DNA of 64,000 bases from the NCBI RefSeq assembly GCF_056746865.1, contig NZ_CM163382.1; one strand, written 5' to 3'. The notes under the pieces are model-generated. The model was not told where the DNA came from, ran no database searches, and worked only from the letters and a program-made list of their open reading frames with translations. This document shows, piece by piece, positions 59,912-63,957 of the stretch (the first letter of the stretch is position 1; each line of letters starts with the position of its first letter). Position numbers and translations under genes: made by a program.

Positions 59912-61126
59912 ATGAAATTTGAACGCCATCATGAAATATTGAAACGACTCAGTAAATTCGGTTCTGTAAAAGTATCCGATCTGTCCAATAGCCTCAATGT
60001 AACGAAAGAAACTATTAGTTCAGATCTTAATGAACTTGCCAGGCTTGGCTATCTGACTCGATGTCATGGCGGTGCTTTTATCGTCCTAGACTCGCTTGAT
60101 ACTATTGCGAAAAATGAAATCGCTTATGCGCTTGAAAATTATGATACAGCCCAGGGAATAAAAAAAGGCCACTCAACTATGAAAAGTCAAGTATGCGTTA
60201 TTGGTTCGTTTAATGTTGATATCATCAGTTATTTGCCGAGGCTTCCCACTATCGGAGAATCGCTTCTGGCAAGTAATTTTATATTTTCACCGGGGGGAAA
60301 AGGCTGTAACCAGGCGCTGGCAGCAAGCTTTGCCGATACTGATGTTTATTTCATAACAAAAGTAGGTACAGATCACTTTAGTGATTATGCGATCAACTTT
60401 ATGAATTCGTCTAAGATTTATAAAAGTATAATTTATCAAACGAAAGAAACGCAAACCGGAACTGCCACGATCCTTGTTAATGAAGGTACTGGCGATAATG
60501 TTATTGCGATCTATCCCGGTGCCAACATGACAATGTCGTCCGATGAAATAACTATTCAGAAAGAAGCGATTATTAATTCTGATGTCATACTTCTGCAGCT
60601 CGAAACAAATTATACCGCTCTGCAACAAGCGATCACATTGGCGCAAAAAAACAGTATCCCGGTCATTATTAACCCGGCACCCTATAATGATATCGTCAAC
60701 GAACTTATTCAGGATGTTGATTATATCACCCCCAATGAAACAGAAGCTGGTTTACTGTCCGGCATAGACGTACACGATCTTGAATCAGCTAAACGAGCTG
60801 CAGAAGCTATCCACAATAAAGGGGTAAAAAACACGGTTATCACGCTCGGTAGCAAGGGCTCGCTCGCATTTGATGGCAAAAAATTCATTCATTCGCCAGC
60901 GTTTCCAGCGGTCGTTAAAAATACGGCAGGAGCCGGGGATGCGTTTAACGGCTCTCTGGCATCAGGACTTGCGAAAGGAAAATCACTGGAATCAGCACTG
61001 TGTTATGCCAGCGCCTTTGCATCCCTAGCGGTGGAGACAAGCAATGCTTCCGACATGCCTGAACATGAATCTGTGATACATCGAATTCAGAGTATACATT
61101 ATCAGCAAACTATTTTTACGCATTAA
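59912..61126 (+). CDS. Fusion protein: N-terminal DeoR-type HTH regulator domain plus C-terminal PfkB/ribokinase-family carbohydrate kinase
   Basis: 404-aa ORF; HTH region VKVSDLSNSLNVTKETISSDLNEL; kinase motifs GGKGCNQA and TAGAGDAFNG; RBS GAGGTGAAG before ATG. Confidence 0.75.
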   Translation: MKFERHHEILKRLSKFGSVKVSDLSNSLNVTKETISSDLNELARLGYLTRCHGGAFIVLDSLDTIAKNEIAYALENYDTAQGIKKGHSTMKSQVCVIGSFNVDIISYLPRLPTIGESLLASNFIFSPGGKGCNQALAASFADTDVYFITKVGTDHFSDYAINFMNSSKIYKSIIYQTKETQTGTATILVNEGTGDNVIAIYPGANMTMSSDEITIQKEAIINSDVILLQLETNYTALQQAITLAQKNSIPVIINPAPYNDIVNELIQDVDYITPNETEAGLLSGIDVHDLESAKRAAEAIHNKGVKNTVITLGSKGSLAFDGKKFIHSPAFPAVVKNTAGAGDAFNGSLASGLAKGKSLESALCYASAFASLAVETSNASDMPEHESVIHRIQSIHYQQTIFTH

Positions 61127-61139
61127 GAAGGGACAGAGA

Positions 61140-61898
61140 ATGAATAACACCAAAAAATCACTAAAAGTGCTCTTTATTGGGGAATCCTGGCATATTCATA
61201 TGATTCATTCAAAAGGATATGACAGTTTTACCTCAAGTAAATATGAAGAAGGTGCGACCTGGTTACTCCAGTGTCTGAAAAATAGTCAGGTAGATGTCAC
61301 CTATATGCCAGCACATACGGTACAAATTGCCTTCCCTGAAGATGTGGCACAGTTAGAACAATATGATGCCATCGTTATTAGTGATATTGGTAGTAATACT
61401 TTCCTGCTACAAAATGATACTTTTTATCAGCTTCGCATAAAACCAAACGCTCTCGAACTGATTAAAGAATATGTGAATAACGGTGGTGGGTTATTGATGA
61501 TTGGCGGCTATCTCTCATTCATGGGAATTGAAGCAAAAGCCAATTATAAAAATACAGTTCTGGCTGATGTGCTCCCGGTTACGATGTTAGATGGTGACGA
61601 TCGTGTCGAAAAACCAGAGGGTGTTATTGCACAGCCATCACAACCTGAACATCCAGTTATTAAAGGGTTCTCTGAATATCCTTTTTTCCTAGGTTATAAC
61701 CGGGCGATCGCTAAAGAAAATGCTGAGGTGGTATTAACAATAAACAACGCTCCATTACTGGTCTTTGGTAACTATCACAACGGGAAAATAGCCTGCTTTA
61801 TGAGTGACTGTTCACCGCACTGGGGTACACAGCAGTTTATGTCCTGGCCGTTCTATACCGCGTTGTGGGTAAATATACTGACTCATATTGCAAGATAA
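61140..61898 (+). CDS. Hypothetical cytoplasmic protein, possibly class-I glutamine-amidotransferase-like (ThuA-like) fold
   Basis: 252-aa ORF, 14 nt after the preceding gene; fold assignment is a tentative impression. Confidence 0.5.
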   Translation: MNNTKKSLKVLFIGESWHIHMIHSKGYDSFTSSKYEEGATWLLQCLKNSQVDVTYMPAHTVQIAFPEDVAQLEQYDAIVISDIGSNTFLLQNDTFYQLRIKPNALELIKEYVNNGGGLLMIGGYLSFMGIEAKANYKNTVLADVLPVTMLDGDDRVEKPEGVIAQPSQPEHPVIKGFSEYPFFLGYNRAIAKENAEVVLTINNAPLLVFGNYHNGKIACFMSDCSPHWGTQQFMSWPFYTALWVNILTHIAR

Positions 61899-61954
61899 TA
61901 ATAATAATGGGGTAACTCCAGTTACTCCATTTACTATAATAGAAGGATTGATGT

Positions 61955-62920
61955 ATGAAAAAGAATAAGTACTCAACTCCCTTATGGATGCTTGCCACGA
62001 TTCTTGCGGGTATGCTCTCCCCTATGCAATCAGCGGTGAATGGTCAATTAGGTCACTGGTTACAGGACGGTAATGCATGCGCAGTTATCTCCTTTGCCAG
62101 TGGTTTAGTCGTGATGTTTTTTATTATTATGGCGCGAAAAGAAACCCGGCAACAATTTGCGGCAATTCCTTCTCTGATTAAAAACCGAAAAGTTCCTCTC
62201 TGGAACTGGTTTGCCGGTCTCTGTGGAGCGATGGTGGTATTTTCTGAAGGCGCATCAGCCAGCGCACTCGGGGTCGCAACGTTTCAGACCGCACTGATCT
62301 CCGCGCTATTGCTGTCTGGTTTACTTTGCGATCGCTTTGGTATCGGTGTCGACGAGAAAAAATACTTTACCCCTTATCGCATCATCGGTGCATTATTTGC
62401 GGTTATTGCTACGATTTTTGTTGTGTCACCGCAGTGGCATTCTACCTCTTTCATTTTACTTGCCATTCTTCCGTTCTTAGCTGGTTTGCTTGCAGGATGG
62501 CAGCCCGCTGGAAATGCAAAAGTAGCTGAAGCTACGGGATCCATGCTGGTTTCAATCACCTGGAATTTCATCGTTGGATTTTGTGTTTTAGGCACAGCGC
62601 TAGCTATTCGTGTCGCATTAGGGCACGTCACTGTTCAATTACCAGATGTCTGGTGGATGTATCTTGGCGGCCCGCTTGGACTAATGTCTATCGGTTTAAT
62701 GGCCATTTTGGTCAGAGGTCTTGGGTTACTGATGCTGGGGGTTGCTTCAACGGCGGGCCAGTTACTGGGATCAGTATTGATTGACGTATTAATTCCATCG
62801 CTGGGCAATACCGTTTATCTGGTCACGATCATCGGAACACTGTTTGCACTGGTCGGTGCAATTGTTACCACTATTCCGGAATACAGAGCCTCGAAAACAA
62901 TGAAGAAAATGGAGGTATAA
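61955..62920 (+). CDS. Polytopic inner-membrane protein, probable DMT-superfamily permease (tandem DUF606/YdcZ-like halves)
   Basis: 321-aa hydrophobic ORF with about 10 predicted TM segments in two similar halves. Confidence 0.55.
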   Translation: MKKNKYSTPLWMLATILAGMLSPMQSAVNGQLGHWLQDGNACAVISFASGLVVMFFIIMARKETRQQFAAIPSLIKNRKVPLWNWFAGLCGAMVVFSEGASASALGVATFQTALISALLLSGLLCDRFGIGVDEKKYFTPYRIIGALFAVIATIFVVSPQWHSTSFILLAILPFLAGLLAGWQPAGNAKVAEATGSMLVSITWNFIVGFCVLGTALAIRVALGHVTVQLPDVWWMYLGGPLGLMSIGLMAILVRGLGLLMLGVASTAGQLLGSVLIDVLIPSLGNTVYLVTIIGTLFALVGAIVTTIPEYRASKTMKKMEV

Positions 62921-62922
62921 TC

Positions 62923-63957
62923 ATGAAAGATTATCTACAAACTGTGACGGGCCCCGTCGCCCGTGAAGATATGGGGCTAACACTTCCTCATGAACATCTG
63001 TTCAACGATCTTTCCTCTGTTGTGGATGCTCCTTGCTATCCTTTTTCACAACGGCTTGTTGATAAAAAAGTCACGGCAGAAATCCAGTGGGCATTAAAAC
63101 ACGATCCTTATTGCTGCGCTGATAATATGGACCGCAAACCTATTGAAGATGTGATCTTCGAAATTAATAACTTTATCTCGCTCGGTGGTCGCACCATTGT
63201 TGATGCCACAGGGTCTGAGTCTATCGGACGAGATGCGCAGGCATTACGAGAAGTCGCATTAAAAACAGGTCTGAATATTGTTGCTTCCTCCGGTCCCTAC
63301 CTGGAAAAATTTGAAAGCCAGAGAATTCATAAAACGGTTGATGAACTGGCGACAACGATCGATAAAGAATTGAATCAAGGGATTGGCGATACGGATATTC
63401 GTGCCGGAATGATCGGTGAAATAGGTGTCTCACCGACATTTACCGAAGCCGAGCATAACAGCTTGCGGGCTGCCTCGCTGGCACAGATTAACAATCCTCA
63501 TGTGGCGATGAATATTCACATGCCGGGCTGGCTTCGTCGCGGTGATGAAGTACTCGACATTGTGTTAGGTGAAATGGGCGTCTCGCCAAATAAAGTCTCT
63601 CTCGCACACTCGGATCCGTCAGGAAAAGACGTGGCGTATCAGCGGAAAATGCTTGATAAAGGTGTCTGGCTGGAATTCGACATGATTGGCCTAGACATTA
63701 CCTTCCCGAAAGAGGGAATAGCGCCAGGGGTGCAGGAGACTGCCGATGCCGTCGCTCATCTCATTGAGTTGGGATACGCCGATCAGCTTGTTCTCAGCCA
63801 CGATGTCTTCCTTAAACAAATGTGGGCTAAAAATGGCGGTAATGGCTGGGGATTTGTTCCAGATGTTTTTCTGGCCTATCTGGCGGAGCGCGGCGTCGAT
63901 AAAACGATCCTCAAAAAACTCTGTATCGATAATCCCGGACGATTATTGACCGCATAA
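62923..63957 (+). CDS. Phosphotriesterase-family (amidohydrolase superfamily) metal-dependent hydrolase, Php-like
   Basis: 344-aa ORF; N-terminal metal-ligand motif LPHEHL; RBS GGAGGT before ATG; 2-nt gap to the permease gene. Confidence 0.7.
   Translation: MKDYLQTVTGPVAREDMGLTLPHEHLFNDLSSVVDAPCYPFSQRLVDKKVTAEIQWALKHDPYCCADNMDRKPIEDVIFEINNFISLGGRTIVDATGSESIGRDAQALREVALKTGLNIVASSGPYLEKFESQRIHKTVDELATTIDKELNQGIGDTDIRAGMIGEIGVSPTFTEAEHNSLRAASLAQINNPHVAMNIHMPGWLRRGDEVLDIVLGEMGVSPNKVSLAHSDPSGKDVAYQRKMLDKGVWLEFDMIGLDITFPKEGIAPGVQETADAVAHLIELGYADQLVLSHDVFLKQMWAKNGGNGWGFVPDVFLAYLAERGVDKTILKKLCIDNPGRLLTA

Follow-up and report, generated by a model that had tools for sequence, protein, structure and literature searches.

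A cluster beside cobU in Escherichia coli as the counterpart of the Salmonella rikA cluster, and its possible role in importing and breaking down a ribose-containing ester or amide

Growth of Salmonella on ribose can be supported by any one of three genes, rbsK, deoK and rikA, and the last of these was named when STM3547 was characterized as a ribose kinase, RikA, whose chromosomal gene alone allows growth on ribose after deletion of rbsK and deoK (McCormick, Jabbar and Escalante-Semerena, Mol Microbiol, June 2026; PMC13432705). The Salmonella enzyme has a Km for ribose of 2.0 mM, uses other pentoses poorly and is inactive as the D343A variant, and the cluster to which its gene belongs, STM3547-STM3550, is conserved in Citrobacter, Escherichia, Budvicia and Proteus (PMC13432705). 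Here, we describe what is, judging from orthology, almost certainly the E. coli version of this rikA-STM3548-STM3549-STM3550 cluster, located at positions 59912-63957 of a 64,000-nucleotide stretch of DNA (contig NZ_CM163382.1 of RefSeq assembly GCF_056746865.1; the whole stretch is called the window below). To the combined reading, namely this identity together with a role of the cluster in taking up and dismantling an ester or amide that contains ribose, we would give a probability of about 0.5. The cluster consists of four intact open reading frames (ORFs), all on the + strand, which encode a helix-turn-helix (HTH) kinase fusion, a PF07090 protein, a transporter and a hydrolase of the phosphotriesterase (PTE) family, as follows.

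59912..61126, + strand: rikA orthologue, DeoR-type HTH plus PfkB ribokinase domain, 404 residues (Pfam, orthology, PGAP name)
61140..61898, + strand: PF07090 'GATase1-like' protein, STM3548 orthologue, 252 residues (full-length Pfam match)
61955..62920, + strand: DMT-superfamily transporter, STM3549 orthologue, 321 residues (Pfam, hydropathy, 94-96% identity to Salmonella/Citrobacter)
62923..63957, + strand: PTE-family metal hydrolase of the Pmi1525 type, STM3550 orthologue, 344 residues (Pfam, PDB matches)

The initial annotation of the window had placed four tightly packed, co-directional genes exactly here, and in this placement only the first of the intergenic gaps needs correction; the gaps are 13 (not 14), 56 and 2 nt. 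It was also right that the cluster is richer in AT than the neighboring cob genes (GC content 0.439 vs 0.525 for cobTSU), and Pfam profile searches, in which all four proteins scored far above chance level, agreed with each of its domain calls. Recent E. coli annotations by PGAP already give the first gene the name rikA.

With the cluster of Salmonella Typhimurium, the genes in the window share their number, order and orientation, the HTH-PfkB architecture of the kinase including Met90 and Asp343, and the upstream region. The window kinase is 81% identical over 404 residues to the product of a Salmonella enterica gene that is followed by the same three downstream genes. When Salmonella enterica (locus L004) and Citrobacter are taken together, identities to the window proteins are 80-81% for the kinase, 81-83% for the PF07090 protein, 94-96% for the DMT protein and 85-88% for the PTE protein, and the corresponding values for Budvicia, Klebsiella spallanzanii, C. 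amalonaticus, Providencia and Proteus are 62-64%, 69-73%, 83-88% and 72-78%. Gene order and strand are common to the orthologous loci compared, and the four genes are conserved together as a unit in Salmonella, Citrobacter, Klebsiella, Budvicia, Providencia and Proteus.

The first gene combines an HTH_DeoR domain (PF08220, residues 5-56, E=1e-12) with a PfkB domain (PF00294, residues 92-382, E=1e-64), and Pfam gave no hit to the DeoRC sensor domain in it. Since a kinase stands in its C-terminal part in place of DeoRC, the protein is a fusion and not a classical DeoR regulator. All ten checked RbsK positions that contact ribose (N14, D16, G42, K43, N46, A98, I100, I110, I112 and E143) are identical in the window kinase and are also kept in its enterobacterial orthologues; with RbsK N187 and the catalytic D255, to which Asp343 of the window kinase aligns in the GAGD motif, 12 of the 12 positions checked for ribose, ATP and catalysis are retained. 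The protein is not a canonical RbsK, because its scores fall short of the cutoffs of curated ribokinase models (284.2 bits vs 299.65 for TIGR02152, and 253 bits vs 341 for NF008353). ATP-dependent phosphorylation of D-ribose was demonstrated with the Salmonella protein alone, and the E. coli kinase is predicted by orthology to do the same. Compared with the E. coli rbsDACBKR operon, the cluster shares the full ribose pocket of RbsK, the catalytic Asp and the logic of a transporter, a kinase and a regulator, while it differs in having a regulator fused to the kinase, a transporter of the DMT and not of the ABC type and two additional hydrolase-like genes, and in lacking RbsD.

Is the cluster, then, just a plain back-up route for free D-ribose, in which the DMT protein imports the sugar, RikA phosphorylates it and the other two genes are passengers? 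The fully conserved ribose pocket speaks for such a route, as does the growth on ribose that chromosomal rikA alone gives to Salmonella lacking rbsK and deoK, whereas E. coli already has the rbs genes and the efficiency of RikA on ribose is low. Moreover, genes for the PF07090 protein and a hydrolase accompany the kinase gene in nearly all of the 80 loci from Proteobacteria and Firmicutes that are described below, so that a passenger role is not expected for them, and we regard this explanation as rather improbable.

How the HTH part of the fusion is expressed bears on regulation of the cluster, and two features at its 5′ side are needed for this question.

59817..59911, + strand: conserved 5′ region of the cluster (homology to Salmonella/Citrobacter begins at 59817)
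60179..60181, + strand: Met90 codon, an internal start used in Salmonella under laboratory conditions (PMC13432705, alignment)

Codon 90 is ATG in Escherichia, Salmonella, Citrobacter, Klebsiella and Budvicia, GTG in Providencia (loci L008, L009 and L011), and a codon for Ala in Proteus (loci L014, L015 and L058); therefore, a short isoform is not producible in the same way in the latter two genera. Every orthologue conserves the protein sequence encoded by the N-terminal 89 codons. Pairwise ratios of nonsynonymous to synonymous substitution rates (dN/dS) are 0.05-0.27 for codons 1-60 and 0.07-0.45 for the linker, and these values are comparable to those of the kinase domain wherever dS is not saturated. 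The HTH codons are under purifying selection and evolve as protein-coding sequence. From the conservation of the 89 codons, the low dN/dS, a Shine-Dalgarno sequence GTGAGGT ahead of Met1 that is invariant in six species, and the fact that codon 90 is not always a start codon, we infer that the HTH codons are translated in nature.

Within the conserved 5′ region, direct reading finds a T-rich repeat, TTTTGCTTTT, which occurs twice at about 59819-59839, a palindrome GTGATtATCAC lies at 59854-59864, and the GAGG of the Shine-Dalgarno sequence (59902-59905) stands 6 nt ahead of the rikA ATG. In an alignment of this region from six species, the T-runs, ATCACA and GTGAGGT are all invariant. The region 59817-59911 may serve as operator and promoter with the palindrome as a candidate operator, and the HTH form might bind DNA and act as a repressor. 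An Rfam scan of 57800-64000 at E<=1 matched no family, and we therefore see no riboswitch or known small RNA in the leader.

The second gene product is matched over its full length by PF07090 (GATase1_like, E=1e-111) and matches PDB entries 2GK3 (STM3548, E=7e-145) and 3SOZ (STM1381, E=1e-109); STM3548 has a solved structure without an assigned function. The protein is unusually conserved: mean column identity is 72% across 17 diverse sequences, and the E. coli protein is 59-66% identical to those of Bacillaceae and Paenibacillus. A nucleophile-elbow cysteine was searched for in the PF07090 protein and is absent, the turn after the strand at 117-121 being GGY, and the sole invariant cysteine is C224 in an SDCxPHW motif. 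Further invariant residues of PF07090 are H20, H23, D28, E36, E37, D82, E131, K133, D154, R155, E157, D223, H227 and W228. The possibility that the protein is a true class I glutamine amidotransferase was rejected for this reason, because the elbow cysteine of the Cys-His-Glu triad is missing. Its nearest outside folds are ThuA-like proteins and non-catalytic glycosidase domains.

The fourth gene product belongs to the PTE family (PF02126, E=2e-46), and it falls into the same subfamily as Pmi1525 of Proteus mirabilis (PDB 3RHG/4QSF, E=3e-174) and Rsp3690 of Rhodobacter sphaeroides (PDB 3K2G, E=1e-67). It is 74% identical to the Proteus mirabilis gene product, and in the alignment the two proteins have identical PHEH, GEIG, NIHMP, AHSD and SHDV motifs, which we take to be the ligand motifs of a binuclear metal center (HxH, bridging Glu/Lys, His, His and Asp). 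Scores against equivalog models are all under the cutoff, namely 82.7 vs 500 for OPH, 108.3 vs 486 for Php and 42.4 vs 630 bits for phospho-furanose lactonase. Pmi1525 sits in the same four-gene cluster in Proteus and counts as a studied homologue of STM3550, although the authors of the RikA study report finding no studies of STM3550 homologues (PMC13432705). According to the accessible part of its description, Pmi1525 is a metal-stimulated carboxylate and methylphosphonate esterase in vitro (via PMC5341072), and the known activities of Pmi1525 and Rsp3690 are promiscuous and on synthetic esters only.

The pairing of a PTE-family member with a PfkB kinase brings to mind the phosphorylated sugar-lactone pathway of the Lmo2620 type, in which the kinase would act on a pentono-1,4-lactone and the PTE protein would open the lactone-5-phosphate. 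A pentonolactone resembles ribofuranose, and a weak NCBIfam match to phospho-furanose lactonase does exist; however, this is the very match that stays so far under its cutoff, and the phospho-furanose lactonases of Listeria (Lmo2620) and Mycoplasma, which share the PTE fold and the association with sugar phosphorylation, belong to a different subfamily. The activities reported for Pmi1525, as far as the accessible description goes, are hydrolysis of carboxylate and methylphosphonate esters, and in other lineages the slot of the PTE gene is held by M20 deacylases or by a proline-iminopeptidase-family hydrolase. We know of no lactonases among M20 enzymes. Thus, we consider a lactone pathway quite unlikely, and prefer to see the PTE-type protein as a hydrolase of ester- or amide-linked groups on a ribose-containing compound.

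The third gene product has two DMT_YdcZ (PF04657) repeats (residues 10-154 and 169-303, E=4e-30 and 1e-15), and its hydropathy indicates about 10 hydrophobic or transmembrane spans. Pfam names the YdcZ family 'putative exporter', so that inward transport is an assumption of our reading.

What accompanies these proteins outside the close relatives of E. coli? Species-representative genomes were scanned with an alignment of PF07090, which gave matches in 415 species; for the 80 loci that were kept, the neighboring ORFs were clustered and annotated. A PfkB kinase with six core ribose-pocket residues is encoded on the same strand as the PF07090 gene in 64 of the 80 loci. In about 72 of the 80, a hydrolase (PTE, M20 deacylase or alpha/beta hydrolase) and a transporter (DMT, ribose-type ABC, APC or NupC) are found on that strand. 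The layouts are as follows, the last one being named after Salmonella pathogenicity island 2 (SPI-2).

Enterobacterales, Morganellaceae and Succinivibrionaceae: 22 loci with PTE and DMT, kinase found in 19; kinase PfkB, hydrolase PTE, transporter DMT
Firmicutes: about 45 loci; kinase PfkB, hydrolase M20 deacylase of the ArgE/DapE type, transporter RbsABC-like ABC importer, with a LacI repressor
SPI-2 type, Salmonella and Citrobacter: 4 loci; kinase HTH-PfkB (orf408), hydrolase of the proline-iminopeptidase family (orf32), transporter APC permease (orf48)

The constant core is the ribose-pocket kinase and the PF07090 protein, while the hydrolase and the transporter are replaceable and have been swapped for non-homologous types at least three times. 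Some Firmicutes loci also carry a PTE gene, a BtpA/SgcQ protein or a carbamoylase-type amidase. Long operons of Bacillaceae (L029, L046, L047, L054 and L066) encode LacI, a ribose-pocket PfkB, PF07090, BtpA/SgcQ, a second PfkB, RbsB/A/C-like ABC components, PTE and M20, and elsewhere in the Bacillaceae, BtpA/SgcQ has as its neighbor a PfkB type with the substitutions K43S and E143S. A gene for a NupC-type nucleoside transporter lies beside the PF07090 gene or among its operon partners in Serratia proteamaculans (L049, 6682-8747) and Oceanobacillus alkalisoli (L050), which hints that some members of the PF07090 family may handle nucleoside-like ribosides.

The SPI-2 cluster orf408-orf245-orf32-orf48, of which orf245 is the PF07090 protein, includes STM1381 (PDB 3SOZ) and is paralogous to the rikA cluster, with 47% identity between the HTH-PfkB proteins and 64% between the PF07090 proteins. 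It has an alpha/beta hydrolase of the proline-iminopeptidase family and an APC amino-acid-type permease where the rikA cluster has PTE and DMT. Paralogous clusters of this type are located at L042 6775-11067 and L030 6699-11060. In a transposon-sequencing (Tn-seq) study, orf245 and orf408 are on the list of genes required at pH 3, during starvation and inside macrophages. The gene order of the SPI-2 cluster has been confirmed (PMC11018118).

The layouts also bear on a completely different idea, that the cluster serves detoxification and export, with the esterase inactivating a xenobiotic, either an ester or a phosphonate, of which the product would be exported by the YdcZ-type DMT protein. The Pfam label of the YdcZ family would agree with it, and so would the cleavage of methylphosphonate esters by Pmi1525 in the accessible part of its description. 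In the Firmicutes, however, the neighbors of the core are LacI repressors and ribose-type ABC importers with their substrate-binding proteins, a catabolic layout, and a ribokinase would have no role in detoxification. We find this idea very hard to accept.

Let us return to the reading in which the cluster serves to take up and dismantle a ribose-containing ester or amide. The DMT protein would import a small compound with a ribofuranose unit that bears an ester- or amide-linked group, and the PTE-type hydrolase would strip this group. The PF07090 protein might then carry out a second, conserved step that frees the ribose or makes it accessible, and RikA would phosphorylate the ribose at O5 and pass it to the pentose phosphate pathway. 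As long as the sugar is absent, the full-length HTH-kinase may bind the conserved palindrome and keep the operon repressed. What the substrate is, in which order the steps follow one another, in which direction transport goes and that the HTH serves autoregulation are all proposals, and we hold this five-step mechanism, taken by itself, to have somewhat less than an even chance of being correct. In its outline, it agrees with the initial annotation, which had suggested uptake and catabolism or salvage of a small molecule, and the same was proposed for the Salmonella cluster (PMC13432705). One could go further and imagine that ribose conjugates, such as ribose esters and ribosyl- or ribulosyl-amino compounds, are handled by a pathway not described before, with the PF07090 protein as its central catalyst, and that HTH-RikA is a one-component sensor, kinase and repressor with isoforms from Met1 and Met90. 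We offer this extension as a speculation that may well turn out to be wrong.

Several points weigh against the proposed role and have to be set out together. The ribose-containing substrate of the cluster is a proposal, the known substrates of Pmi1525 are artificial esters, and searches of the literature on PF07090, GATase1-like, STM1381 and ThuA gave no functional data for the PF07090 family. The kcat/Km of RikA for ribose is about 50-fold under that of RbsK, and the authors of that study consider that ribose may be an off-target substrate of RikA (PMC13432705). Salmonella cells yielded only the RikA product that starts from Met90, without the predicted DeoR domain (PMC13432705, section 2.5), and this product may represent a second isoform or arise only under the conditions of that experiment. 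The name of the YdcZ family as 'putative exporter' is unfavorable for import. A promoter scan gave 9 sites vs 9.9 expected, which is not above chance, and hence we do not claim a promoter. Finally, the cluster is dispensable, because about 870 E. coli genomes keep remnants of it only, often the last ~850 nt of the PTE gene.

Where did the E. coli cluster come from? In Salmonella and Citrobacter, it is located between yhhY and ggt, whereas in the window it lies by cobU in a variable region of the CP4-44 type, flanked by remnants of IS66 and ISL3 insertion sequences (ISs) and with a fragment of ggt dragged along. The features around the cluster are given here.

59135..59308, unstranded: IS2-like terminal remnant (83% identity over 175 nt to the end of K-12 IS2F)
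59378..59803, + strand: IS66-family remnant, left edge of the block (PGAP annotation in a related genome and an ISEc23-like match)
63965..63991, unstranded: GC-rich hairpin with a 12 bp stem, located after the PTE stop codon and before the convergent ggt fragment (terminator scan and sequence)
63997..64000, - strand: ggt 3′-end pseudogene fragment, first 4 nt (annotation of L001 and L002; homology)

Nucleotide homology to Salmonella and Citrobacter, at about 76%, extends from 59817 to ~64290, that is, from 95 nt before the start codon of rikA into the ggt fragment. K-12 has yhhZ-yrhA-IS1-yrhB instead of the cluster at the yhhY-ggt site. The ggt fragment is 92% identical to K-12 ggt and 80-82% identical to ggt of Salmonella and Citrobacter, and because it is thus closer to the K-12 gene, the donor was probably a genome of the Escherichia lineage in which the cluster was still at its ancestral place between yhhY and ggt. 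We conclude that a block of 4.5 kb was moved by insertion sequences into the variable CP4-44 region beside cobU. A functional link to the cob genes, for example in salvage of alpha-ribazole, was considered and rejected, because the adjacency is seen only in E. coli and comes from this IS-mediated insertion, the Salmonella and Citrobacter cluster sitting between yhhY and ggt.

At the left edge, PGAP annotation of a genome 99.8% identical to the window (locus L002) gives an IS66-family transposase pseudogene at 59378-59716, and the stretch 59739-59803 is an 89% match to a region of a copy of ISEc23, an IS66-family element. The presence of both IS2-like and IS66-like remnants upstream had been recognized in the initial annotation, which had also named CP4-44 at this position in K-12; indeed, in K-12 this cryptic prophage comes directly after cobU, and the site is variable. 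The same 99.8%-identical genome has an IS4-family transposase fragment annotated just beyond cobU at 58165-58353 and, just past cobU, a C-terminal remnant of a 'cobalamin biosynthesis protein' at 58013-58156; in K-12, the stretch 58013-58353 carries the labels yeeH and yoeG. The segment 57800-59136 as a whole corresponds to K-12 cobU-yeeH-yoeG-yoeH minus the IS5H insertion. The empty site of IS5H is at 58252-58255, with a match to K-12 on both flanks, and this 4-nt overlap fits the target duplication of IS5H.

At the right edge, the hairpin at 63965-63991 is a probable terminator, which may act on the + strand, its T-run being on the minus, or ggt, side. In genomes identical to the window, the ggt fragment extends beyond the window to ~64289, and after it comes an ISL3 pseudogene; this ISL3 copy has a dead transposase gene. 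In locus L002, the ggt fragment continues at 21598-21890. The initial annotation had allowed for continuation of the cluster past 64000, but with the convergent ggt pseudogene fragment and the dead ISL3 gene following, the cluster consists of four genes and ends at 63957.

As had been supposed in the initial annotation, the cluster is accessory. Of 5426 complete E. coli genomes, 1905 contain 80% or more of the block, with few exceptions at an identity of 99% or higher, and the roughly 870 genomes with remnants come in addition to these. Six of 2818 places that match 59912-63957 across E. coli genomes are on plasmids. Decay within the species is observed as an internal stop codon in the DMT gene of one strain (L002, 19556-20521), and in other E. 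coli strains the cluster is interrupted by insertions of IS1, IS2, IS3 or ISVsa5 (hits H2-H6, H14-H18 and H53-H61). It might be possible, then, that the E. coli block is just decaying cargo of a graveyard of mobile elements and is no longer useful. Such insertions and the stop codon, the dead IS copies at the flanks and the genomes with fragments only are what one would see in that case, but the four ORFs are intact in the window and in most of the 1905 carrier genomes at 99% identity or higher, and the proteins are highly conserved between genera. We therefore judge decay without use to be unlikely for this block, and keep to import and breakdown of a ribose-containing ester or amide as its preferred role.

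Taken as a whole, the result is a modest one, since it concerns an accessory operon that is already published and annotated and is hence already known. The interpretation given in the initial annotation was broadly right, except that the cluster is not an unexplored one: RikA has been characterized, Pmi1525 has a structure and an esterase activity, and STM3548 has a structure. What is new here are the limits of the block, 59817 to ~64290, the purifying selection on the HTH and the cross-species pattern in 80 species. The cluster is carried by about a third of complete E. coli genomes as well as by Salmonella, Citrobacter, Proteus and Providencia, and has a paralogue inside SPI-2. Three of its four proteins have been studied singly, directly or via close orthologues, with a kinase assay and two crystal structures, one of them accompanied by esterase assays, and these results on kinase, structures and esterase had previously not been joined into one pathway. 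Joining these threads with the pattern across phyla narrows the search for the nutrient, and this cross-phylum pattern gives a testable function for the widespread PF07090 family.

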